64,000 nt of DNA from Fibrobacter sp. (GCA_045617325.1 JAZLIJ010000066.1:1787-65786), one strand, 5' to 3'. Counted from the stretch's first letter, positions 41,707-55,292 are shown. Notes: a model not told the origin generated them from the sequence alone. Translations and numbers: made by a program.

Positions 41707-44136
41707 ATGTTTTCTCTTTTTGCAAAAATCATCAAAAGAGCGGCCAATTATTCAAAAGCCTCTCTACTTGTTATCTTCGCCTTGCTGCTATTGAGCATCA
41801 TTCCTATCAAAAATTTACATTGGGAATTGCAATTGCAGGATACTTTGAAAGGCAAGGACGCCGTCACCGAATTTCAGGAAATCGAAGCTGCCTTCGGTGG
41901 ACTGGGCAGTCTCATAGCCGTCATCCAATCTGAGGACAGTCTATACAATTACAACATCGCAAAGAAACTGACCAATGAGCTACGCAACAATGCCGCAGTT
42001 CATTTCACCGATTTTGACACCGACATCGAATTTTACAAGAAAAACAAATTCCTCTACGCCAGCGAAAACGACATCGATACACTGGTTAGCCGCATAGAGA
42101 TTCTGCGTCAGCAGTTCATCAAAAAGAACAACCCGCTTTTCGTCGATTTGAACAGCGAAAATTCCGAAGCAGCCCCATCCACTGATGAAGGCTCCCGAGA
42201 AGGCCTCCTCAACGACCTTGAAAAAAAATACTTCGACAAGCTAGCAATAAGCCACTCCAACAAATCAGGTACCATCCGCATCGTCGAAATATACCCGACC
42301 CATTCGCTATCGGATTTACAGGCAAATCGCAATTTGGTTTCACAAGTAAAGGATTTTTTTGAGCAGGAACGCACAAAAAAAGAGTTCAAGTTCTACTTCA
42401 CAGGAAAGGTTTTTGCATCAGTGCAAACAGGCAAAAAGCTTCTTCCCGAAGCAAAAATTGCGGGCGGAATCACGGCGTTGTTCATACTGATTCTCCTCAT
42501 CATCCATTTCTACAAGCAACCGCAGCTGATTCCCATAGCGGTGCTTCCCCTCACCACACCCATCGTCTTTACACTAGCACTTGCATCCCTCATCTATGGC
42601 CGCATCAACCTTTTCACGCTGATGCTAGCCATATTGCTTCCTGGGCAAGCCTGCCAGACGCTCAACCACGTATTGAACCGCTACTACGAGGAACGAGAAA
42701 GCAAATTGAGCCCGCACCTGTGCATCGAGAGCGCCATTCTCGGAATCGGCCCTTCGACCGCCGCAGCCAGTTTCATCTTTGCATCGCTATTCGCAAGTCT
42801 CACCCTCATACCATTACCCGGACTGCAGGAACTGGGCGTCATGGGCGCTATCGGCTGTATTTTGAACTGGGCACTCTGCATCCTCCTCGCCGCAGCACTT
42901 CTAAAATACAGTCAAAAAAAGTCACCATTCGCAGTTATTCACAGGCCCCGCCTCAACAATTGCAAAATGACGATGCTTCCCAATCGGCTCAACTGGGCGA
43001 TATTCACGACTATCATTGTAGCAAGTCTTTTCGGTTACTACTTCGGTGGCAAGGAACTCAATTTCAGTTACGACTTTAACACCACAGAACTCAAAAATTC
43101 CGACCCAACGGTGGATTCGCTCATTGCGCAAACTGGATTTTCGAATTTTTCACCAATCATTCTTCTTTTACCAAACGCACAGGAGGGCGAATTTCTTCTA
43201 AAGGATTACAGCACCCTCAAGGCAAAGGGTGAAATTTCATACATAGACAAGATTTTCACACTTGCGCAATTTTCACCGAATCTTCAAGAAGAAAAGATGG
43301 AAAAGCTCCGCAGGCTCCATAGCGTCATCAGCAAGGATTTTCTGAACTTTCTCTCACCCTCCGAGCGCGACAACCTCAAGATGATTTCGCAAGCCATCGA
43401 AATGGACGAGAGCGACGAAATCGAGCCTCCAGAAAATATCGCAAATAAATTCAGAGACAGACATGGAAAGCAAGGTGTTTTTGCATTCGTCTTTTCCGAC
43501 ATCAACCAGGACAACGGACTGGAATGTCGTCGGTTGAACCGAGACCTTCAAAAGCTGGAAGGAATCAGGAACGGAAAATACCTCATCGCAGGAACAGCCA
43601 TCACCCGCGCCCAGTTCCTCGACAAAATTCTATCCAACACAGGAAAAGCAATTGTTCTAGGTTCCATCCTTGTCTGGGTTCTGCTACTCGTATTTTACAA
43701 TCGTCTGAGCCGTGCAATTTTCACGCTGCTTCCGTCCATATTCGCAATGAGCTGGCTTCTCTTGACGCTAGCCCTCAAGGAAGTCGGCATCACGGCCTAC
43801 AGCGCCCTCGCCTTCCCGCTTCTCATCGGTGCAAGCGTAGACGGTTCGCTGCAATTCTGGGCGTCGTACTACGAAAAAATGCAAGGTACGGCACTCACGA
43901 TTCTCAGGCGCAAGTATTTTTCAATTATCGTATCGCAGCTTGCAGCCCTCATCGGAACCTACAGTTGCCTCATATCGTCGCATCCAGGACTTCGCAGCAT
44001 AGGCCAAGTCGTGTTGATAGGCTTAATTTGCATTTTTGCGGCACAATTCACGATTTTCCCGCTAATTGCCGGTTCCCTGGACCATCACCGACTTCGCAAA
44101 AGACTGAAAAAAGCGGAACAACGCAAACAAATTTAG
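41707..44136 (+). CDS. MMPL/RND-superfamily exporter (COG1033-like)
   Basis: Two blocks of 5-6 hydrophobic helices (res ~235-400 and ~640-790), each preceded by a soluble domain of about 200 aa. This is the 12-TM pseudo-repeat architecture of RND-type exporters. Confidence 0.6.
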   Translation: MFSLFAKIIKRAANYSKASLLVIFALLLLSIIPIKNLHWELQLQDTLKGKDAVTEFQEIEAAFGGLGSLIAVIQSEDSLYNYNIAKKLTNELRNNAAVHFTDFDTDIEFYKKNKFLYASENDIDTLVSRIEILRQQFIKKNNPLFVDLNSENSEAAPSTDEGSREGLLNDLEKKYFDKLAISHSNKSGTIRIVEIYPTHSLSDLQANRNLVSQVKDFFEQERTKKEFKFYFTGKVFASVQTGKKLLPEAKIAGGITALFILILLIIHFYKQPQLIPIAVLPLTTPIVFTLALASLIYGRINLFTLMLAILLPGQACQTLNHVLNRYYEERESKLSPHLCIESAILGIGPSTAAASFIFASLFASLTLIPLPGLQELGVMGAIGCILNWALCILLAAALLKYSQKKSPFAVIHRPRLNNCKMTMLPNRLNWAIFTTIIVASLFGYYFGGKELNFSYDFNTTELKNSDPTVDSLIAQTGFSNFSPIILLLPNAQEGEFLLKDYSTLKAKGEISYIDKIFTLAQFSPNLQEEKMEKLRRLHSVISKDFLNFLSPSERDNLKMISQAIEMDESDEIEPPENIANKFRDRHGKQGVFAFVFSDINQDNGLECRRLNRDLQKLEGIRNGKYLIAGTAITRAQFLDKILSNTGKAIVLGSILVWVLLLVFYNRLSRAIFTLLPSIFAMSWLLLTLALKEVGITAYSALAFPLLIGASVDGSLQFWASYYEKMQGTALTILRRKYFSIIVSQLAALIGTYSCLISSHPGLRSIGQVVLIGLICIFAAQFTIFPLIAGSLDHHRLRKRLKKAEQRKQI

Positions 44137-44324
44137 CCCCACCCTCGGACTCCCTTTTTAACCGACAAAAACAGGATATCCGTCGAGCCCTTTAAACTTG
44201 CCATTTCGCGAAACATATTTTCACAAGCTTGTTTAAATGAATTTCTTACATCATCCGTAATATTGTCTTTTTATCAAAAAGCTCTTTACCATAATGACTT
44301 ATTTTTTGAGCAATTTTGGAGAGT

Positions 44325-44924
44325 CTAATTTTCACAATAAGAACAAGTAACTCCATTATTTTCTCGTACAGAAATATTATACTCCATATTTGGCGGATCA
44401 TCCTTTCCAAAACAGGGGATTACAACCTTTAAACATTTCTGAGAGAATTTGTAAAACGGTTCCATCTTAGTTCCTTTTGGGAATAAATATTCCCCCTTAG
44501 TCATAGAAGAATCAACCCACTCAACAAACCATTTATAATTAGATTTTCTTAAATTCGTACGTTTCATCCGACCAAAGGAAAGAGGCGTTTTTTGTGGACA
44601 CCCGGCTTTTAAGCATGAATCCGAAACCATATTTGCCCATGGCGAAAATTCCTTTAGTAACAAGGTGTCATCAACAGTTTCTATCCAAACTGGAGTAAAA
44701 ACTCTCATTCCAGAGTTAAGTAAATCAACGTCATAACAATCTTTATCTAGGGACATATTGATATTAAACGTCATCCCGTCATAAAAACGTTCAACATTTT
44801 CAATTCGACAAAATACATCTTCTTCTTTCTCAGAGTTTTTTTGACAAGAAACAAAGGATCCAAGAAAAGCAAGCAATAACACATATCTTACGAAAAATTC
44901 TGCATAATATTTCATACAAACCAC
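44325..44924 (-). CDS. Cys-rich lipoprotein, unknown function (AT-rich islet)
   Basis: Lipobox LAFLGSFVSCQ and 11 further Cys residues. No recognisable domain. Confidence 0.5.
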   Translation of the reverse strand: MVCMKYYAEFFVRYVLLLAFLGSFVSCQKNSEKEEDVFCRIENVERFYDGMTFNINMSLDKDCYDVDLLNSGMRVFTPVWIETVDDTLLLKEFSPWANMVSDSCLKAGCPQKTPLSFGRMKRTNLRKSNYKWFVEWVDSSMTKGEYLFPKGTKMEPFYKFSQKCLKVVIPCFGKDDPPNMEYNISVRENNGVTCSYCEN

Positions 44925-45172
44925 CTATTTACTTTGATCAATAGGATGTTCAGGGCCTTTAAGTGGTGAAAAATATATAAAATTGGGAGTTTTCAAGAGT
45001 ACTTCCTTTTCTGCAGAAGAGCCTCCATCGTAATTTCAAGCGTGAGCCTCGTGGAGGTGAACTCGTCATTTTTGCGGATATCTTAACAAACAAGTTCAAC
45101 GAGCAAGTCTCTCCAATCATAGGAAATTATTTCGCAAGATTGGACTTTAGATTTGAAAACAATTAAACAAGA

Positions 45173-45532
45173 TTAGAAATAACAATAAATTCCAAAACCA
45201 AGCAGGAATAATGGCATCCACATACTTTTGTTGATTAAACCTATTTTTACATCAAGGAAATCAAGAAACAAAAGTATCGCGGCAAGCAAAAAGAAAACAT
45301 ACGAAAAAACATTTATCGTATCATTAATAGATGATTTTTCCAAATGGTAATAAAACATCACCCCCTTTAACGACATGAGAATCAAGGCAAAAGAGGTTGT
45401 TGCAGATAAAAAACGACTAATCACACGAGCTTCTTCAATCACGGGCAACTCCTTTTGCGCAAGCTTTACGAAGATTCGACAAATCACCTTTGCGTACAAA
45501 TAGGATCTTTTTAGAAAAAGGATTTTTTTCAA
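45173..45532 (-). CDS. small multi-TM membrane protein, unknown function (AT-rich islet)
   Basis: Hydrophobic helices FALILMSLKGVMFYY, VFSYVFFLLAAILLFLDFL and MPLFLLGFGIYCYF. The true start is possibly GTG at 45424, just after the upstream stop. Confidence 0.35.
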   Translation of the reverse strand: MKKILFLKRSYLYAKVICRIFVKLAQKELPVIEEARVISRFLSATTSFALILMSLKGVMFYYHLEKSSINDTINVFSYVFFLLAAILLFLDFLDVKIGLINKSMWMPLFLLGFGIYCYF

Positions 45533-45980
45533 TGGTGAAACTTTTCACAGGTTCATCAGTATAATAAATCTTTATTACATCATGCGAGGTTTCAGCAAAC
45601 AATTCCGTATCCTCATCAATAGCTCCAATTCCCAAAGTTAACGGAAATTCATAAGTCGCAATGTGAATCTTTTCTTCTTTTGAATTGACATAGAAAATTT
45701 TATACACACGATATATTCCATAAGGGCCATTTACAAACAACCTTAAAAAAGATGTCTTTACATCTTCCCCCAATACCGCCAACTTTTCATTTTGAGTTGT
45801 ACAGGATCCACCGTCATCAAAGGAATATATCGGCAAAATTTCTTCGCCCTTTCCTGGAAAATGTCCTCCTCGCCAAGCGATGAAACAAAAAAGTACAACA
45901 ACAGCAACCGATAAAGATATGAGCGCTTTTAAAATCAATTCGAAACAATCAAGTACTGTAGAAATATATTTCATATTCAT
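45435..45980 (-). CDS. membrane-anchored protein, unknown function (AT-rich islet)
   Basis: N-terminal TM ALISLSVAVVVLFCFIAW followed by a beta-rich ~140 aa domain. No motif recognised. Confidence 0.45.
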   Translation of the reverse strand: MNMKYISTVLDCFELILKALISLSVAVVVLFCFIAWRGGHFPGKGEEILPIYSFDDGGSCTTQNEKLAVLGEDVKTSFLRLFVNGPYGIYRVYKIFYVNSKEEKIHIATYEFPLTLGIGAIDEDTELFAETSHDVIKIYYTDEPVKSFTIEKNPFSKKILFVRKGDLSNLRKACAKGVARD

Positions 45981-46225
45981 TGTTTCTATGGTTTATAATT
46001 TTCTTTATATAGTTCGTGATGTTCGCATTGGCACGTACTTTCTTTTTTCGCTTCAATACGTATGCGCTCTTCGGAACATTCCCTATTTTCTTCACCGCAT
46101 CCCACTAGATTCAGCAAAGGGAACAGACAGGCTCATAAAAGACAATTTATTCTACCCACGAAGTCCCTTGTGCATTAGCTTTCAGAATTATTTCAAATAA
46201 ATTACAATATCACGGTCAATTAAAT

Positions 46226-46894
46226 TTACTTCTTGTCTTGTGGCACAAGGCGCTCGACGACGCGGAAAAGGTCGTTGTAGATTTCAAGAAAGTCCTCAAT
46301 CCAAATCGGGTCGTGCTCGCCAACAATGTGGAAAGTTTCTTCCAGGGTGTGCAGCGAATTGTAGAGGCCGACCATGGCACCAGCGGGCTGCACATACTGT
46401 CCCTTGTAAATGGAAGAGGCTGCAATTCGAGCGCGATAGCTGCGGCGAAGACGCGCAATGAGGGCTGCTCGCAAAGCCAAGAGTTCATCATGCGCCATCA
46501 GGAATTCCGACTTGTCAATCCACTGGTTCACCAGGTCGAGGCGATGCAAAATAGCGTCGCGTTCCGTAACAGGAACGAGCATCTTTTTTGCGTCCAGCAT
46601 GGTGCGGATTCGCTTCGAGATTTTTGTCAAAAGTTCAGCGTTCCAGAAAATCATCGGCGGGCGTTCATCAACAGCATTCTTGGAAACCATCGGGGCATGC
46701 GTCTTAAGCCAGCGTTCCAATTTGTCGCAGATGAGTTTCGCTTCCGGATAGCGATCAACGCAGACGTATTCCTGCGCGCGGTTCATCAGCGCATCCGCGT
46801 AAACCATCCGCCAATGCGGAAGCTTCCCGGATTTGCGGATGGCATCAATCCGTTGCTTGAGACCTGCGAGTATTTCTTCGAAATTCTGGACCAT
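46226..46894 (-). CDS. cytoplasmic helical protein, unknown function (last gene of stator operon)
   Basis: 222 aa with no signal peptide. Its start overlaps the MotB-like stop (TAATG). No catalytic motif recognised. Confidence 0.6.
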   Translation of the reverse strand: MVQNFEEILAGLKQRIDAIRKSGKLPHWRMVYADALMNRAQEYVCVDRYPEAKLICDKLERWLKTHAPMVSKNAVDERPPMIFWNAELLTKISKRIRTMLDAKKMLVPVTERDAILHRLDLVNQWIDKSEFLMAHDELLALRAALIARLRRSYRARIAASSIYKGQYVQPAGAMVGLYNSLHTLEETFHIVGEHDPIWIEDFLEIYNDLFRVVERLVPQDKK

Positions 46895-47556
46895 TACTTA
46901 CCGGCTCCAGCCTTAGCCATTTTCGGAGAGTCAATTTTTTGGAGCGGCGTGACGCCGATTTCCACACGGCGGTTCAGGCGGCGGTGCTCCTCGCTATCGT
47001 TCGGATACTTGGGCTGATGTTCAGCGAAGCCGGCGGCAAAAATTCTATCCGGCGGAAACCCTTGAGCCACCAGGGCGCGCACCACGTTGACGGCACGTTC
47101 CGAGGAAAGATGCCAGTTGGTGTAAGTGGAGGACTTCACCGGGGTATCGTCGGTAAAGCCGCTCACCATGATGACATCGCTTGTATCCAAGGCGTCGAGC
47201 AGGCCCTTGCTGATGCCTTCAATCACGCGGAAACCTTCCTGCGTGAGATTCGCACCATTCAGCGGGAAAAGGAAGCTCGCCTGGATTTGAATTTTACCGT
47301 CTTCCAAGGCGATAAGTCCCGCCTCGATGGAAGTCTGCAAGCTCTTGGAGAGGAGCGCGTTACGTTCCGCGGCGATTTTTCGCATCTGCTCCTGGCAGGT
47401 GAGCACTTCCTCTTCGGTTCGCGTCAAATCTTCCGCCTTCTGCTCCTTGAGGGTCGCCATCGCGACAAAAGCCAAAATGAACAGCGAGACGAGGGCGACG
47501 CCCAAGTCCGTATAAGCCATCCACGGATTGCTGTTTTCGTCCTTAATCCGACGCAT
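46894..47556 (-). CDS. MotB/ZorB-like stator subunit with OmpA-type peptidoglycan-binding domain
   Basis: NPWMAYTDLGVALVSLFILAF places the conserved Asp at the cytoplasmic end of a single TM. OmpA-like C-domain SGFTDDTP...LSSERAVNVVRAL...NRRVEIGV. Confidence 0.8.
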   Translation of the reverse strand: MRRIKDENSNPWMAYTDLGVALVSLFILAFVAMATLKEQKAEDLTRTEEEVLTCQEQMRKIAAERNALLSKSLQTSIEAGLIALEDGKIQIQASFLFPLNGANLTQEGFRVIEGISKGLLDALDTSDVIMVSGFTDDTPVKSSTYTNWHLSSERAVNVVRALVAQGFPPDRIFAAGFAEHQPKYPNDSEEHRRLNRRVEIGVTPLQKIDSPKMAKAGAGK

Positions 47557-47558
47557 AA

Positions 47559-49538
47559 TTAACCTTCGACCTTAGGCTGCGTTGAAGCGCCACCCAACGA
47601 GGAACGCTGCGTCTGTTCCAGCACTTCGAGGAGAATTTCCTGCGTCTTGACCGCATTTTCCATGAGCACTTCGCTGGCGCGTTCGTGGAAAGCTTCCAGG
47701 GACTGATTGAGGTGTTCGATGAACGTTTCCTCCTCGTCGCGTTCCGCGGTGTCGCCGGAAAGCTTTTCGAGAATTGTCTCGAGACCGCTGCGAAGCATTT
47801 CGAGGTTCGCGCTGAGTTCGGACTGGTTCACGCGCATGAGTTCCGCGGTTTCCACAATGTTTCCGCCGAGAGCGTCCGTTGCTTCCTTCTCCTTGACAAC
47901 GCGTTTGTCGATGCTTTCGGTGAGCGCCTTTTGCGCTTCGAGAAGCACGGCGGAAGTTTCGGAAAGTTTCTGGAAGGCGCCGAGAATATCGGAAGAAAGC
48001 GTGCCCAATTTTTCGGAAACGGACTGGCTGAGTTCGGCAGACCCCGCCTGCGCCTTTTCAGCCACCTGCAGGGCAACGTTCTTGAGCGTTTCAAGGCCGT
48101 CGCGCTGGGCATCCACATTGGCTGTCGCGCGTTCTTCGAGACGCTGCATGAAATCATTCCACTGTTCGTTCGACTGCTTGACCTGATCCGCGATGGATTC
48201 CGCAATGCTGCTGGAGGAATCTGCCATGGAATTCTGGGCGGATTCGCTCACCTTGTAAAGACCGTCGTAAACGCTACCGGACACATCGCTCAAGGCGGAC
48301 TTCACATCAGTCGCTACACCGTCAAGGCCGGACTTCACATCCACAGCCACTCCGGACAAAGCTTGCGCCACATCCCTGGAGACTGTTTCGAGGCCATTCT
48401 GAACACCGCCGGCAATATTTCCCACCTCACGTTCCAATTTGTCTGTAAAGACAGACATTTTTTCGTTCAGCATTTCCGGAATCGTTTGCACTGAGGCGGC
48501 TAGATTCTTGACACTCTCTTCCATCGGTGCAAATGCAGATGTAACAGAAGAGCTGACATCCGTCGCAAGGTTCGACATGGAATCGTTAAGCTTGCCAACA
48601 GACTGCGTCATATCGCCAGCCATCTTCTGAATAGAAGAATTCATCTTTTCGGAGAGTTCCAAGACAGAATCGTTGACATTCTTGGACATCGCTTGGACAG
48701 ATTCGTTAATCTTATCAGAAACGCTAGAAACAGAGCTCGAAATATTGCGGTCCATCTTTTCGGTGACAGAGGAAAGCTCCTCGCCCACCTTCGCAACAAT
48801 TCCGGAAAGTCCCACCTGCACGGAATCGGCAACCGCATTCAGCTTCTCGCCGACGATATCGAACAAGCGTTCCATTCCGCTCTTGTCGCTTTCTTCATCG
48901 ACTTCGACATCGCCCTGCATGTCCAAGGTGAGCGCATCAAGACGAGACATGAACTTTTCACGTTCAGAGACAAGCATGGAGCGGCAGGAACTCAAAATCA
49001 AGGCGGCGAACAAACCGCAAAGGCTCGTTCCGAAAATGCCCTTCATGTTCTGGAAAAGCACCTGGATGGTATCGAGCGTCCCTTGCGTCGTCGAGTTGTC
49101 GATGGCACCGCCGGCAGTCGCGACAGACTGCATCAAACCAAAGAACGTTCCCATAAGGCCAAGCAGAATGACCGTACTTCCGACACTGCGTGGCACAGAG
49201 ACAGACGCCGTCGAGGAAAGGACTTCAAAGGCAATCGGCGAATCCAGGCGAATCTTCTTTTGCAAAAGGCGCTTTGCCATTTCAATGCGCTTTGCGACAA
49301 TTCCGTCACCCTTAACAAAGAAGCTTCTCTTGCTTTCACAGGATTCGACAATTTTATTTTCATTTGCTATTTGTCTCATTTTTCTCAAAGTCGCAATCTG
49401 CTCAAATAGATACACGACAAAGATGGCAATCATGATTATCCAGCCAAACGCAGGAGCGCCAAAGTACATAGCGCCAGCCACAAGAGCCGAAAGACCGATA
49501 ATGGTCAAGAACAAAATCAAGTAGAATGTTTTTTTCAT
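47559..49538 (-). CDS. MotA/ExbB/ZorA-like proton-channel protein with ~460 aa C-terminal coiled-coil tail
   Basis: Four TM helices (about res 5-24, 29-46, 121-140, 166-186), with the MotA_ExbB-type LLGLMGTFFGLM and FGTSLCGLFAAL. The remainder is Pro-free, aromatic-poor and S/V/A/E/K/D/N-rich, with 11-residue periodicity. Confidence 0.8.
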   Translation of the reverse strand: MKKTFYLILFLTIIGLSALVAGAMYFGAPAFGWIIMIAIFVVYLFEQIATLRKMRQIANENKIVESCESKRSFFVKGDGIVAKRIEMAKRLLQKKIRLDSPIAFEVLSSTASVSVPRSVGSTVILLGLMGTFFGLMQSVATAGGAIDNSTTQGTLDTIQVLFQNMKGIFGTSLCGLFAALILSSCRSMLVSEREKFMSRLDALTLDMQGDVEVDEESDKSGMERLFDIVGEKLNAVADSVQVGLSGIVAKVGEELSSVTEKMDRNISSSVSSVSDKINESVQAMSKNVNDSVLELSEKMNSSIQKMAGDMTQSVGKLNDSMSNLATDVSSSVTSAFAPMEESVKNLAASVQTIPEMLNEKMSVFTDKLEREVGNIAGGVQNGLETVSRDVAQALSGVAVDVKSGLDGVATDVKSALSDVSGSVYDGLYKVSESAQNSMADSSSSIAESIADQVKQSNEQWNDFMQRLEERATANVDAQRDGLETLKNVALQVAEKAQAGSAELSQSVSEKLGTLSSDILGAFQKLSETSAVLLEAQKALTESIDKRVVKEKEATDALGGNIVETAELMRVNQSELSANLEMLRSGLETILEKLSGDTAERDEEETFIEHLNQSLEAFHERASEVLMENAVKTQEILLEVLEQTQRSSLGGASTQPKVEG

Positions 49539-49554
49539 TTTATACCTGCATCAA

Positions 49555-50463
49555 TTAAGCCTTGTACGAGGCCGTTGTTTCAAACAAATTCAATTGTCCT
49601 CTAGAAAATCCACGAAGGAACAGAGACCACTTGCTCTGGTACCATTCAATCACCTGGAGCGACAAACCTTTCGCATAGTCACAGAAATCATCTGTAAAAG
49701 CTAAAAATCCATTTTCATAAGCATAATGCGGATTCCAGTAACGACCGACATTTCGGGCACAGGAATTCGCAGTCAGGAAATACCTCGTCGGAGCCTTTGA
49801 CATAAAGGCGGCACTGAAACGTTTCTTCGCAAGCGCATTGAGCGACGTGCGAAGTGAAAGGACCATCGAATTTTCCTTTTCACGAAGCGAGGATTCCAGA
49901 CACGGAAGCAACTTGGATACCGGATCGACCGCACTTTCGGAATGCCAGTACTTGCACAACTTTTCTTGCAGCTGCATTACGCGACCATGGGTACGGACAA
50001 ACAGAGGTTCCGCATCGCTTACGAGCAAGTGAATCGTCGCCGAATAGAAGTTGTTGATGTCCTGCTTGTTGTTCTTGACGGTCAGTGCCCAGCCCTTTTC
50101 CTCGTCATGCGTCAAGAAGTTGCCCCCTTCCAGAAGCAAGCGCAGCACTTCGTCTGTCGAAAAACGCTGCATCCACTTGGTGCGGAATTCATCGTAGAGC
50201 TTGTTTGCATCCTTGATGATTTGCGGAAAGCCGGACTCACAAAGTTTCCAGGCGGATTCACTATACGAAATCTGTTCGGAACCGCCGACATTGGCAGACG
50301 GATTGTTGAGCATGGCATCCAGATGTTCGTAGAGCGCGATTGCCCACGTGACCATCATGGACTGAGATAACGTAGCAACCATCGTCGAACGGTTCGGGCG
50401 AACCGCCAATCGCACACTGGCACCAGTCATCTTGCGTATAGCTCGGCGAAAATACTCTTCCAC
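49555..50463 (-). CDS. cytoplasmic protein, unknown function (stator operon)
   Basis: 302 aa with no signal peptide or TM and no recognisable motif. It lies 16 nt upstream of the MotA-like gene. Confidence 0.6.
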   Translation of the reverse strand: MEEYFRRAIRKMTGASVRLAVRPNRSTMVATLSQSMMVTWAIALYEHLDAMLNNPSANVGGSEQISYSESAWKLCESGFPQIIKDANKLYDEFRTKWMQRFSTDEVLRLLLEGGNFLTHDEEKGWALTVKNNKQDINNFYSATIHLLVSDAEPLFVRTHGRVMQLQEKLCKYWHSESAVDPVSKLLPCLESSLREKENSMVLSLRTSLNALAKKRFSAAFMSKAPTRYFLTANSCARNVGRYWNPHYAYENGFLAFTDDFCDYAKGLSLQVIEWYQSKWSLFLRGFSRGQLNLFETTASYKA

Positions 50464-50472
50464 AGAAACTCC

Positions 50473-51195
50473 TTAGAAATCCGCTTCCAGGCGATGCCAA
50501 ATGCTTCGATTCACACGCTTCTTATTTGCCGAAAGTTCCTCGGCTTCGCTGCGAATATCCGCCTCATCGTTATCCTTGATCAGTTCACGAGGACCTTCGA
50601 ATTGCCCTTCCGCTTCGAGATACAAGCCGTAAACATTGTTGGATATTTTTGAATCCGTCGAAAAGACGGAACCGGCACGAATCGAAAGCGCATAGCGATT
50701 GTTCTTGAACTCGTTACGGATCAAAAAGACCTGCGGACATTCATCCACCCACAAGCCATAATAGTTATTCTCGAAATGAACATTTTCAAATACGCCACGC
50801 GAGCGGAAAAGAGAATTGCGGAAAGCATTTTTGACAACGAGATTCGAAACCTCAAATGGTTTTCTGTTTGAGATGAAATGGAAACCGTTCCAGCTTTTCG
50901 TAGAATCGACGCTCTGAAAAACGACAGGTTTAGCTTGGCTACCGGCAATTTTTACAGGACCACGCAAAACAAGCTTCGCATACTCCCCCATCAGCACCAT
51001 GACACCCGGTTCTACGACAAAGGAATCCGTCGCAGAAACAACAAGCCCTTCATCCAACTCATAGGGGCTGTCTTTCTCTTGCAAAAAAATCTTGGACTTC
51101 ATAGGAGACGGAATCGGCATCCCTGCCGCGTAAACCGAAATAGAAAGTCCCAAAGAGGCTAGAACAGACAAGGAATACTTCTTCAAGAAATTCAT
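50473..51195 (-). CDS. secreted protein with right-handed parallel beta-helix-like repeats (stator operon)
   Basis: Signal peptide ...SISVYA/AG. Repeated motifs: VVKNAFRNSLF, FENVHFENNYYGLWV, IRNEFKNNRYALSI, KISNNVYGLYL. Confidence 0.55.
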   Translation of the reverse strand: MNFLKKYSLSVLASLGLSISVYAAGMPIPSPMKSKIFLQEKDSPYELDEGLVVSATDSFVVEPGVMVLMGEYAKLVLRGPVKIAGSQAKPVVFQSVDSTKSWNGFHFISNRKPFEVSNLVVKNAFRNSLFRSRGVFENVHFENNYYGLWVDECPQVFLIRNEFKNNRYALSIRAGSVFSTDSKISNNVYGLYLEAEGQFEGPRELIKDNDEADIRSEAEELSANKKRVNRSIWHRLEADF

Positions 51196-52022
51196 TGTAA
51201 TTCACTCCTTAAAGAAATACTTTGAATAACATGGATATTGGGAATGGAATCATTTGCAACCAAATCACGGATGTTCAAGTCGCCATTGATTTCAAAATTT
51301 GCAGAAGACAATATACCATGAGTCACATCAAAAAGAATGGACCCCGACCCCACCACAAAATCGGAACTTTGAATCAGCACCTTGGATGTCGAATCAGCGT
51401 TTTCCTTGTACTTCAAGTTGACTTCGATTTTTGCAAAACGGACACCATCGCGAATGAACAGGTCTTGCAAAGTGTAATACTTGTAAACAGCCGTCTCACG
51501 CCCCTTGTCATGGATAATCACCTGACGTTCCCACGAATCCCCCAACTGAACAGAGCTTCCCGGAAAACTCGGCTGAACTTTCAGGAATAGAGGTATCAAG
51601 TTCAAATCATCGATACTTGGAAGATTGTGGGAATCTTTGATTACAGGATCCGACAGGGAACCGTCCTTCGCCAGCTTAAACTGGAAATTTTGAGTTGATA
51701 AATACTTTTCAACATTGCGAAATTCATCTACGGAACGCTTATCTGACTTGTAATCCACAGAATCAATAATCATCTCAAAGCGAGCGGTACCATCATCATA
51801 AGGCATCAGAAGATTCGACGACGCCTTCACCAGCAAATGCGTTTTCATGGATTCCGGATTCGGAGTCGAGGAATCAGACGGAAGCAGCGCATTCAGCGAA
51901 GCATCCAGCGTAAACTTCTGCGACGGAACATTCTGCGTATTGAAGGCCAGAAAAACATCGTCCTTGTCACAGGAGCTCAACAACAAAAAAATGGGTAAAA
52001 TCAAAAAACGATACAATTGCAT
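51192..52022 (-). CDS. lipoprotein, unknown function (first gene of stator operon)
   Basis: Lipobox FLLLSSCDK; beta-rich. Its stop overlaps the next start (ATGA at 51192-51195). Confidence 0.6.
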   Translation of the reverse strand: MQLYRFLILPIFLLLSSCDKDDVFLAFNTQNVPSQKFTLDASLNALLPSDSSTPNPESMKTHLLVKASSNLLMPYDDGTARFEMIIDSVDYKSDKRSVDEFRNVEKYLSTQNFQFKLAKDGSLSDPVIKDSHNLPSIDDLNLIPLFLKVQPSFPGSSVQLGDSWERQVIIHDKGRETAVYKYYTLQDLFIRDGVRFAKIEVNLKYKENADSTSKVLIQSSDFVVGSGSILFDVTHGILSSANFEINGDLNIRDLVANDSIPNIHVIQSISLRSELQ

Positions 52023-52138
52023 GGACCAAATTTAGTATTTGATACGCAAAACGACGGATGCAGCAGCATTAGCCAAAGCATTTACAAGCCAAATACACGA
52101 AAGACCGAGCGTTTCCGGTCAAAAAAGCTTCAACCGCA

Positions 52139-52687
52139 TCAAGGCATCTCTTTTTTCGCGGGCTTAGCACCTGTATCGCCCTTTTCAAGGCGCATCTGCT
52201 GGAAAAACGCTTTCAGCATTCCAAGGCATTCATCGGCAAAAACTCCTCCAGTCACCTGAACGGCCCTCTTAAGGGCGTTCCCCGTAATCACGTCGATAGT
52301 CGTGCCGCATCCGCCAAAGCGCGTATCCGGGGAACCGTAAACAACGCGACTGATGCGGCTGTTGAGGATTGCACCAGCGCACATCGGGCACGGCTCCAAG
52401 GTTACATACAAAGTACATCCATCCAGTCGCCAATTTTCAAGCGTCCCCGCCGCAGTCCCGATGGCTATGATTTCAGCATGCGCAGTGGCGTCCTTCATCG
52501 TTTCCACTTGATTGTAGCCTCTCCCAATCACGACTCCATCTTTTACAATGATGCAGCCAATGGGAATTTCCTTTTCGTCAAAAGCTTTCATCGCCTCGCG
52601 AATTGCCATTCGCATAAAGCGCTCGTCCACCAAGCGTTGGGAATCGACATCTGTCGTTGAATTTTGTATTTCGGAAATCGGTTGCAT
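52139..52687 (-). CDS. tadA: tRNA adenosine(34) deaminase
   Basis: Zinc motifs HAEIIAI and PCPMCAGA. The short basic C-terminal extension is unusual but in frame. Confidence 0.9.
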   Translation of the reverse strand: MQPISEIQNSTTDVDSQRLVDERFMRMAIREAMKAFDEKEIPIGCIIVKDGVVIGRGYNQVETMKDATAHAEIIAIGTAAGTLENWRLDGCTLYVTLEPCPMCAGAILNSRISRVVYGSPDTRFGGCGTTIDVITGNALKRAVQVTGGVFADECLGMLKAFFQQMRLEKGDTGAKPAKKEMP

Positions 52688-54337: not shown

Positions 54338-54547
54338 TTAAGCGTCTTCATCATCCAGGCTTTTCAACGCTTCCTGGACGTTTTTCTCGGTCGAAAGGAG
54401 GATTTGGCGGCACTTGCGCAAAAGTTCCGTGGCCTCCTGCACTTCACCAGCCAGTTCATCAATTTCCATTTCGGAGTTGTCTATCCGCTCCAAAATGGAT
54501 TCCAGGCGTTCCATGGCGTTTTTATAGTCGTTGTTTTCCGTACTCAT
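54338..54547 (-). CDS. xseB: exodeoxyribonuclease VII small subunit
   Basis: Start at MSTENNDYKNAMERLESILERID... 69 aa, with the helical hairpin typical of XseB. The longer ORF to 54712 is unlikely. Confidence 0.8.
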   Translation of the reverse strand: MSTENNDYKNAMERLESILERIDNSEMEIDELAGEVQEATELLRKCRQILLSTEKNVQEALKSLDDEDA

Positions 54548-54575
54548 GCCCTGAATATAGTTACATTTAAAATCG

Positions 54576-55292
54576 ATGAACTCATCTAAAATGCCAGTTG
54601 TCTCTTTTTTTGTCGGAATAGCGCTCCTTTTCGCAGGAGGGATGCTTTCGGGCTGCCTCGACCTTCCAAGCAGACCACATTCCATCAAGCCTATCGAAAA
54701 CGTAAGCATCACCTCTTTTCAACTAGAAAAAAACGATTCCACAGAGCTCAAAATATCACCTCTGTTCGAATCAACATTCCATGTCAACGTCACCCCAAAA
54801 TCATACAAGGACGAACTTGAGATTGAATGGTTCCGATCGGACAACGGCAAGGATTCGCTGCTCTGTAGCGGAGATTCCATTGTCATTTCACATTTGCCAA
54901 CTCCAAGCGAGATTCCAAACAAAGTCGTCCTAACAGACAAGGCGAACAACAAACTGGAAAAAGAATTCACAATTATAGTCAATACAGCGCCCACTATGGG
55001 AAGCATCGCCAAGCCGGACCAAGGCGACACCCTCTACGCAACCCCGACAACCGCAATTGAATTCTCATGGACATCCAGCGACTACGACCTATCAAATGGC
55101 GACAAGCTCAACCATACATTGGAAATAGACGGCGTGCAATACAACGTCGGACAGTTGAACAAGGTCGTACAATCCGGTTTCAAAAGCGGGGTACACCAAT
55201 TTCGCGTCATCGTCGAGGACAGATACGCCAGTGCGGACACGCTCTCCATGCATAAGTTTTTCGTCGTCGATACAACAGGAGGCGAACATTGA
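54576..55292 (+). CDS. lipoprotein with two Ig/PKD-like beta-sandwich domains
   Basis: Lipobox GMLSGCLD. Beta-sandwich-like repeats (ELEIEWFRSDNGKD..., AIEFSWTSSDYDLSNGD...). Confidence 0.6.
   Translation: MNSSKMPVVSFFVGIALLFAGGMLSGCLDLPSRPHSIKPIENVSITSFQLEKNDSTELKISPLFESTFHVNVTPKSYKDELEIEWFRSDNGKDSLLCSGDSIVISHLPTPSEIPNKVVLTDKANNKLEKEFTIIVNTAPTMGSIAKPDQGDTLYATPTTAIEFSWTSSDYDLSNGDKLNHTLEIDGVQYNVGQLNKVVQSGFKSGVHQFRVIVEDRYASADTLSMHKFFVVDTTGGEH

Follow-up and report, generated by a model that had tools for sequence, protein, structure and literature searches.

In a 64,000-nucleotide (nt) stretch of Fibrobacter sp. DNA (GCA_045617325.1 JAZLIJ010000066.1:1787-65786; the whole stretch is referred to below as the window, and positions are counted from its first letter), six minus-strand genes at 46226-52022, designated g1 to g6 in their 5' to 3' order, form a compact cassette next to a tadA-like gene. 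In an initial annotation, made from the sequence alone, the cassette was read as an operon centred on a long-tailed stator of the ZorA/ZorB type, accompanied by no recognisable Zorya effector. The open reading frame (ORF) calls reproduce the coordinates, the lengths and the junctions of that reading: g1 and g2 overlap by 4 nt (51192-51195), the next three junctions leave 9, 16 and 2 nt between the genes, and g5 and g6 overlap by 1 nt (46894). Likewise, the features described for the proteins were recovered, namely a lipobox in g1, a beta-helix in g2, transmembrane (TM) segments plus a tail in g4, the AYTDL motif, OmpA domain and NRRVEI ending of g5, and the cytoplasmic character of g3 and g6. 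The gene arrangement is not a product of chance, since the same genes recur in the same order in at least about 40 independent loci. Based on the evidence presented here, we propose, with a probability of roughly 0.55, that this operon represents a previously undescribed Zorya-type subtype, sister to type III, which is maintained as a fixed and constitutive core operon of Fibrobacter and the Fibrobacteraceae.

The ZorA/ZorB-type core

The B subunit, g5, is matched over its full length by the PADLOC model ZorB3 with 148.3 bits (E 5e-44), compared with 67 bits at most for ZorB1 and ZorB2, and the comparison with type III ZorB by hhalign yields a probability of 100% (E 2e-39). The two proteins align end to end, and Asp17, the GFTDD region and the NRRVE motif are invariant. 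When the g5 family and type III ZorB were scored reciprocally with hidden Markov models (HMMs), values of 125-148 bits were obtained, against about 70 bits for 35 other metagenomic ZorB-like proteins, which indicates that the B-subunit families of g5 and type III are mutual nearest relatives. The C-terminal part is recognised by Pfam OmpA (57.8 bits), with the domain ending in NRRVEI, and the closest match of this peptidoglycan-binding domain in the PDB is PomB/MotB (about 72 bits). Only 22 bits are obtained with the type I ZorB of E. coli (8qyd_F), and the NCBIfam MotB models score far under their cutoffs. A tblastn search of plasmids with g5 returned full-length matches of 35-37% identity. 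Sequence comparison establishes g5 as a ZorB homolog, with the channel aspartate and a peptidoglycan-binding OmpA domain. In addition, other pairs of ZorA-like and ZorB-like proteins were observed in at least about 35 metagenomic loci (L111-L168), whose B subunits score about 65-80 bits with both family HMMs; none of g1, g2, g3, g6, ZorF or ZorG was found in those loci.

Zorya systems are classified in types I to III only (PMC8565338, PMC11946911, PMC11890865), of which type III comprises ZorF-ZorA-ZorB-ZorG and has been demonstrated by experiment to give E. coli protection from phage (PMC8565338, Payne et al. 2021). Where the matches to g5 come from Azoarcus, Ralstonia and Caballeronia, the surrounding operons carry the annotations DUF3348, DUF802, OmpA and DUF2894, an order that corresponds to ZorF-ZorA-ZorB-ZorG and defines type III. 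In the type III loci collected here (L029-L088) ZorA is annotated merely as a 'DUF802 domain-containing protein' and ZorB as an 'OmpA family protein'.

The hydrophobic segments of g4 are confined to residues 2-52, 118-141 and 167-191 and precede a tail of about 460 residues, a topology predicted to be MotA-like, with four TM helices. In hhalign the g4 family matches type III ZorA with 98% probability (E 3e-13), residues 1-202 aligning with residues 1-192, and two motifs, LLGLMGTFFGLM and GIFGTSLCGLFA, vary little or not at all within the family. The PADLOC models ZorA1 and ZorA3 score about 37-40 bits on g4, some of the alignments being collinear over the whole length, tail included, and ZorA3 is the best-scoring model for the A subunits of distant family members. 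An HMM of type III ZorA gives just about 13-47 bits with the A subunits of the g4 family, and DUF802 has no Pfam match in g4. We may regard g4, from its homology to ZorA in the channel domain, as a very divergent ZorA-type subunit. The ZorA/ZorB-type stator of the initial annotation is accordingly recovered in both proteins, with ZorB3 as the best model for g5 and a g4 channel domain homologous to that of type III ZorA.

The hydrophobicity spectrum of the g4 tail peaks at 3.66 residues with a power of 352, against a maximum of 107 in shuffled sequences, and has no signal at 3.50. The same peak is present in the type III ZorA of Azoarcus (3.66) and in distant relatives (3.64-3.68), and the tail of g4 contains only 3 prolines per 460 residues. 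Such a hendecad periodicity agrees with the proposed model of the E. coli ZorA tail as a right-handed coiled coil, a pentameric assembly of about 70 nm in which all tested truncations abolished defence (PMC11946911). If fully helical, the tail of g4 would also reach about 70 nm. Searches of the PDB with g4, either as a single sequence or with a channel-domain profile, returned compositional or spurious matches only (apolipoprotein, designed PPR proteins, ribosomal uL3), and those of the apolipoprotein type appear to stem from the 11-mer repeat of the tail. Orthologs of g4 (P0006, P0034 and others) are named 'fimbrial protein' or 'Fimbriae-associated domain protein' by NCBI and UniProt; no fimbrial family is matched by g4, and the label most likely arose as an artefact of composition, the hendecad tail being rich in Ser, Val and Glu.

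The cytoplasmic partners g3 and g6

Both g3 and g6 lack hydrophobic segments and are predicted to be helical. The AlphaFold2 (AF2) model of g3 is a helical bundle with a small hairpin (predicted local distance difference test, pLDDT, 77.5; predicted template modelling score, pTM, 0.74), and that of g6 is helical and of low confidence (pLDDT 66, pTM 0.41). The two proteins stand where ZorF and ZorG are found in type III Zorya, and their relationship to these was assessed by hhalign in three rounds, each with its own profile set, and by comparison with nulls made by block reversal (n=150), the ZorF and ZorG profiles being built from about 60 sequences extracted from type III loci. With a profile at the Fibrobacter/Fibrobacteraceae level, g6 aligned with ZorG end to end over 174-175 columns, the motif blocks agreeing at either terminus, and its score of 24.2 was reached by none of the 150 nulls (17.7 ± 2.2). 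When the most divergent members were added to the profile, the score was 19.2 and 53 of the 150 nulls reached it. For g3 and ZorF the match was at most a 45-column segment at the N-terminus (hhalign P 0.04-0.19; 2-5 of 150 nulls reaching the score), and in both comparisons the hhalign probability was 5% or less throughout. No robust match between g3 and ZorF or between g6 and ZorG was obtained with phmmer, and members of the g3 and g6 families, distant homologs included, gave no match to DUF3348, DUF2894, ZorF or ZorG even at E<=10. Since the early signal between g6 and ZorG was lost with diverse sequences and the direct scans were empty, g3 and g6 are treated as positional analogs of ZorF and ZorG, to which they may possibly be homologous.

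The initial annotation had also stressed that no helicase or nuclease motif is visible in the partner proteins, and took this as pointing either to novel effectors or to a different machine. In fact, no such motif was found, and g1, g2, g3 and g6 match none of ZorC to ZorG. Nevertheless, the flanking proteins of type III carry DUF domains only, with no predicted helicase or nuclease domain (PMC8565338, PMC11890865), and because type III has the same layout and sizes as g3-g6 this lack is not unusual for the branch, a point which that annotation had missed.

A reading of the conserved 'H..GDAEK' stretch of g3 as a PD-(D/E)xK nuclease motif was discarded, as this region is predicted to be helical in the model. 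Moreover, a short C-terminal motif, G-x-x-N-S ... D/S-P-x-W/Y-x-x-x-F-L-x-Y/I-x-D/N-x-L, was noticed in ZorG (profile positions 170-202) and g6 (about 174-210), and weakly in g3 (about 229-261). With borderline statistics, it could represent a common tail-binding element or a chance resemblance.

The exported partners g1 and g2

The lipobox of g1 reads LLSSC, with Cys18 invariant across the family, and 9 of 10 family members match Pfam DUF6263 (best E 5e-6), all under the curated cutoff. In g2 an N-terminal signal peptide can be read from the sequence, and the protein matches Pfam Beta_helix (28.2 bits, cutoff 25.9) and NosD (23 bits), as does its homolog in the distant relative L174 (30.6 and 30.5 bits, respectively). 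Profile searches of the PDB with g1 and g2 gave no matches. Among the loci listed, every Fibrobacteraceae locus with sufficient flanking sequence has g1 upstream of g2-g6, as does L174. Loss of g2 is limited, among the listed Fibrobacteraceae loci, to the metagenomic relative L107 (7048-8995), which keeps g1 and g3-g6 with about 218 nt between g1 and g3.

Distribution and genomic context

At least about 45 loci were collected from genome and metagenome scans and from contig look-ups, and among those listed the operon is present in every Fibrobacter genome examined. The order tadA-g1-g2-g3-g4-g5-g6 is kept in the Fibrobacter and Fibrobacteraceae loci with enough flank (at least about 40 loci, L107 being without g2). 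Conservation of the six-gene neighbourhood, a point to be checked according to the initial annotation, holds across Fibrobacter, and in the more distant L170 and the contig of P0403 it is restricted to g3-g6, neither g1 nor g2 being present upstream of the module. Homologs of g3, g4 and g6 recovered by a word-indexed search all come from Fibrobacter, and when 1.84 billion representative proteins were scanned exhaustively with an HMM of the g4 channel domain, only 43 clusters were obtained at E<=1e-10, mostly of 515-694 amino acids (aa); the g4-type family is small.

In the distant relatives the A subunit is 22-38% identical to g4, a g3 homolog lies upstream of the A-B pair (105-326 bits) and a g6 homolog downstream (36-171 bits), so that the module g3-g4-g5-g6 can be traced down to an A-subunit identity of 22-27%. 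Both g1 (186 bits) and g2 (180 bits) are present in L174, in a different genomic context, and in neither L174 nor L170 is tadA adjacent to the cassette. Since homologs of g3 and g6 flank the A-B pair in every relative while g1 and g2 vary, the conserved and ancestral unit is g3-g4-g5-g6, a four-gene module whose outer members g3 and g6 co-evolve with the g4-g5 pair, and g1-g2 is an addition linked to this unit in one part of the clade.

As a core operon the cassette is inherited vertically and is not a mobile island. In type III Zorya, by comparison, the flanks show little conservation inside a genus: 0 of 5 are conserved in Dyella and about 1 of 6 in Pseudoxanthomonas, whereas Stenotrophomonas shows partial conservation. 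The flanks of the type III loci from Luteibacter and Xanthomonas (within L029-L088) are likewise poorly conserved. The features of the operon and the conservation of its proteins are collected in Table 1, where g3 is the most conserved of the accessory proteins.

Table 1. Features of the operon and its upstream region in window coordinates; identities are medians to the window proteins over 22 complete loci
Feature	Position	Strand	Length	Description	Median identity
tadA-like deaminase	52139-52687	minus		syntenic anchor directly upstream; not regarded as a functional part	85%
Terminator-like hairpin after tadA	52103-52120			within the g1-tadA intergenic region	
Region 5' of g1	52023-52138	minus	116 nt	intergenic; promoter region of the operon only suggested	
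g1	51192-52022	minus	276 aa	exported lipoprotein, DUF6263-like; periplasmic add-on	54%
g2	50473-51195	minus	240 aa	secreted right-handed beta-helix protein; periplasmic add-on	58%
g3	49555-50463	minus	302 aa	GTG start; cytoplasmic, all-helical; at the ZorF position of type III Zorya	82%
g4	47559-49538	minus	659 aa	channel domain and long tail	61%
g4 residues 1-195	48954-49538	minus		four-TM MotA/ExbB/ZorA-type channel domain	
g4 residues 196-659	47559-48953	minus	about 460 aa	cytoplasmic helical tail, hendecad periodicity	
g5	46894-47556	minus	220 aa	ZorB-type subunit, single TM helix	88%
g5 Asp17 codon	47506-47508	minus		AYTDL, start of the TM helix	
g5 OmpA-like peptidoglycan-binding domain	about 46969-47268	minus		Pfam OmpA	
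g6	46226-46894	minus	222 aa	cytoplasmic, helical; at the ZorG position of type III Zorya	64%

In the window the operon is neighboured by genes for an MMPL transporter, the tadA-like deaminase, an ABC ATPase and XseB. The tadA-like protein matches Pfam MafB19-deam (130.8 bits) and dCMP_cyt_deam_1 (112.4 bits). At 54338-54712 the longest ORF with an XseB domain has a GTG start and an N-terminal extension of about 60 aa, the true start probably lying further downstream. Scans for promoters and terminators gave counts near the shuffled expectation. Downstream of g6, the AT-rich block noted initially is real, with a GC content of 0.33-0.37 at 44000-46000 against 0.45-0.56 in the operon. Within it, three small minus-strand ORFs lie at 44325-45980, encoding proteins of 199, 119 and 181 aa, the first with a lipobox-like VSC and the last with a TM segment at its N-terminus; neither Pfam nor PADLOC gave a match for any of them. 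The position just downstream of g6 varies between genomes, being occupied by a Fib_succ_major protein in F. succinogenes and by a PDDEXK_2 protein in Fibrobacter sp. UWEL, and appears to be a site of variable insertion.

Expression in F. succinogenes S85

Fibrobacter succinogenes is a key rumen cellulose degrader, and in its strain S85 the counterparts of the six genes, identified by order and annotation, are FSU_0289 (g1), 0288 (g2), 0287 (g3), 0286 (g4), 0285 (g5) and 0284 (g6). FSU_0289 is annotated as a lipoprotein, FSU_0286 as a 'fimbriae-associated domain protein', ExbB/MotA, and FSU_0285 as a 'putative chemotaxis MotB'. Five of the six proteins were found in the envelope proteome of uninfected S85 cultures, namely those of g1 (FSU_0289), g2 (FSU_0288), g5 (FSU_0285) and g6 (FSU_0284), together with that of g4 (FSU_0286), for which 21 peptides covering 41% of the protein were reported (PMC6851124). 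Between cellulose and glucose the abundance of the operon proteins changed about 1.2-fold (PMC6851124). The operon is constitutively expressed, and the g4 counterpart of S85 is an abundant envelope protein which is presently mislabelled as 'fimbrial protein'.

Proposed function and alternative explanations

By analogy with the structure of the E. coli system, g4 and g5 would form a 5:2 complex in which g5 is anchored to peptidoglycan, and proton flow through Asp17 would turn g4 and its tail bundle. In the places of ZorF and ZorG, g3 and g6 may then receive or gate the signal at the g4 tail, and g1 and g2 would act in the periplasm, where they would sense or control the wall or envelope state on which the engagement of g5 depends. 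Since the operon encodes no nuclease or helicase, its output is probably not DNA cleavage by an enzyme of its own. Judging from the characterised systems, the most likely role would be that of a sentinel for envelope perturbation, with phage attack as the best-precedented trigger.

Several results weigh against this proposal. In the PADLOC and Pfam scans of the core pair that the initial annotation had called for, g5 matched ZorB3 and OmpA, but for g4 Pfam MotA_ExbB reached 18.4 bits, under its cutoff of 22.9, the PADLOC ZorA models about 37-40 bits, and the NCBIfam models antiphage_ZorA_1, _2 and _3 gave 52.7, 23.8 and 20.3 bits against cutoffs of 190, 100 and 250, respectively. No Pfam, PADLOC or NCBIfam family was found for g3 and g6, and among g1, g2, g3 and g6, none of which has a PADLOC match of any kind, no ZorC, ZorD, ZorE, ZorF or ZorG was detected, the scans of their distant homologs at E<=10 included, and Pfam, PADLOC and NCBIfam gave no enzyme family. 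Foldseek searches with the g3 model against the PDB and BFVD returned no match at E<0.01, with generic helical bundles at E>=0.02, and the low-confidence g6 model gave only such bundles in the PDB, also at E>=0.02. The 5:2 stoichiometry, the rotation, the bundling of the tails and the binding of partners are deduced by analogy only. The locus itself departs from a typical defence system in its fixed position beside tadA in at least about 40 loci, and in that g3 and g5 are as constrained as tadA, an essential housekeeping gene that acts in tRNA editing. In the window neighbours of the operon PADLOC found generic-domain matches only and no defence genes, and the distant relatives have housekeeping neighbours, including genes for DnaG, GreA, ArgJ, Omp85 and ribosomal proteins.

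These properties of the locus would be well accommodated if the operon encoded a housekeeping envelope machine, that is, a ZorAB-type rotary complex which was domesticated or never defensive and has a constitutive role in the Fibrobacteraceae. Monitoring or remodelling of the wall or outer membrane, vesicle production and envelope-stress signalling may be suggested as such roles, with g1 and g2 as periplasmic parts and g3 and g6 as cytoplasmic regulators. The abundant and constitutive expression in S85 without phage, the lack of a nuclease or other effector domain and the presence of two dedicated exported proteins, which occur in no described Zorya type, point in the same direction, and, as the contexts of proteobacterial type III systems vary, the fixation is specific to the Fibrobacter-type family. 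However, the sole experimentally characterised relatives are anti-phage systems, sentinel defence systems may also be constitutive and core, and the faster evolution of g1, g2, g4 and g6 (54-64% identity) fits an arms race as well. Accordingly, we consider a housekeeping role a serious but less probable alternative. With the same tentativeness we may hypothesize that a ZorAB-type 5:2 motor with a 70-nm tail, fixed for housekeeping, couples the state of the wall or envelope, via g1 and g2, to g3 and g6, and would thereby constitute a new class of proton-powered transmembrane signalling. If this were true, anti-phage Zorya would have evolved from, or alongside, housekeeping signalling motors, and Zorya-type motors would not be solely immune devices.

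A further explanation is that the operon is a true but extremely divergent type III Zorya, with g3 as ZorF, g6 as ZorG and two extra genes. An identical gene order, similar sizes and the soluble, helical nature of all four flanking proteins speak for it, together with the end-to-end alignment of g6 with ZorG that none of the nulls equalled, its matching terminal blocks, and the N-terminal match of g3 to ZorF, which 2 of 150 nulls reached. Yet the g6 score is at null level once diverse members are included, the hhalign probabilities are uniformly low, and neither family matches a DUF3348, DUF2894, ZorF or ZorG model, and we give such an identity a probability slightly below that of a housekeeping role. 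Far less probable is a trans-envelope motor, driven by protons, with which the cell would adhere to cellulose or move along it and which would transmit force to the cell surface as in Agl-Glt, Tol-Pal or ExbBD-TonB. Fibrobacter relies on tight cellulose adhesion, and two partners are exported, one of them a beta-helix protein of carbohydrate-binding type. This possibility had been raised in the initial annotation and received no support, as g4 extends its long output element into the cytoplasm, g5 bears an anchor for peptidoglycan in place of an ExbD/TolR domain, no periplasm-spanning partner resembling TonB, TolA or GltG was found, g1 and g2 are missing from the distant relatives L170 and the P0403 contig, and the abundance of the proteins hardly differs between cellulose and glucose.

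We therefore favour a Zorya-type subtype sister to type III. No Zorya-like system beyond types I-III was found described in the literature searched, and co-mentions of Fibrobacter with Zorya, or mentions of DUF3348, DUF2894 or DUF802, were limited there to a Tn7-cargo survey, a 2005 survey of domain architectures, an E. coli Zorya II preprint and two of the three Zorya papers cited above. In this subtype a Zorya-type machine would be core, vertically inherited and conserved to the degree of an essential tRNA-editing gene, and with g1 and g2, accessory proteins of the periplasm would be seen for the first time alongside such a stator. The operon may also be a useful system for addressing two questions, namely the signalling target of the ZorA tail where no nuclease is encoded and the non-immune roles of such motors. 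The working mode of the effector-less type III was left unexplained in both PMC11946911 and PMC11890865.

Comparison with known systems

ExbBD-TonB and TolQRA-Pal are 5:2 proton-driven inner-membrane motors of the same superfamily, from which the operon differs in that g5 carries an OmpA domain and not an ExbD/TolR domain and in that ExbB and TolQ have no long cytoplasmic tail. In the Pfam and NCBIfam scans no partner with features of TonB or TolA was found among the operon proteins, and an ExbBD-TonB set is encoded elsewhere in the F. succinogenes genome (FSU_2400-2403; PMC6851124). MotAB and PomAB belong to the same superfamily too, and share with the operon a peptidoglycan-binding domain, that of g5 being closest to PomB/MotB, and the four-TM, MotA-like topology of g4. 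In contrast, the 460-aa tail of g4 has no equivalent in the short C-terminus of MotA. With MotA_ExbB under its cutoff and a tail of helical hendecad periodicity, g4 is, as initially proposed, no ordinary ExbB, TolQ or MotA. No flagellar genes were found at the operon locus, and Fibrobacter is, to our knowledge, non-flagellated.

Type I Zorya (E. coli ZorABCD, 8QYD, PMC11946911) resembles the operon in the channel aspartate and dimeric peptidoglycan-binding domain of ZorB and in the ZorA tail, which measures about 70 nm and must be intact for defence (PMC11946911), the tail of g4 being of comparable length. It differs in sequence, since g5 scores only weakly against 8qyd_F and g4 has no match, and in composition, as ZorC and ZorD are absent from the operon.

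The resemblance to type III is closer. Its gene order F-A-B-G matches g3-g4-g5-g6, its proteins of about 235-256, 736-810, 213 and 190-240 aa compare with 302, 659, 220 and 222 aa, and it provides both the nearest B subunit (ZorB3, 148 bits) and a homologous A channel domain (98% in hhalign). The long ZorA tail with its 3.66-residue periodicity is likewise shared, and in both systems a small soluble helical protein stands on either side of the A-B pair, with no nuclease or helicase. On the other hand, homology of g3 to DUF3348/ZorF and of g6 to DUF2894/ZorG could not be demonstrated, the Fibrobacter A subunit misses DUF802, the exported proteins g1 and g2 come in addition, and the cassette keeps a single chromosomal site through vertical inheritance, in contrast to the variable flanks of type III in proteobacterial genera. 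Type III Zorya is found in Proteobacteria and the Fibrobacter-type cassette in Fibrobacteraceae and metagenomic lineages, and the latter family would accordingly represent a fourth, sequence-distinct set of partners on the Zorya motor.

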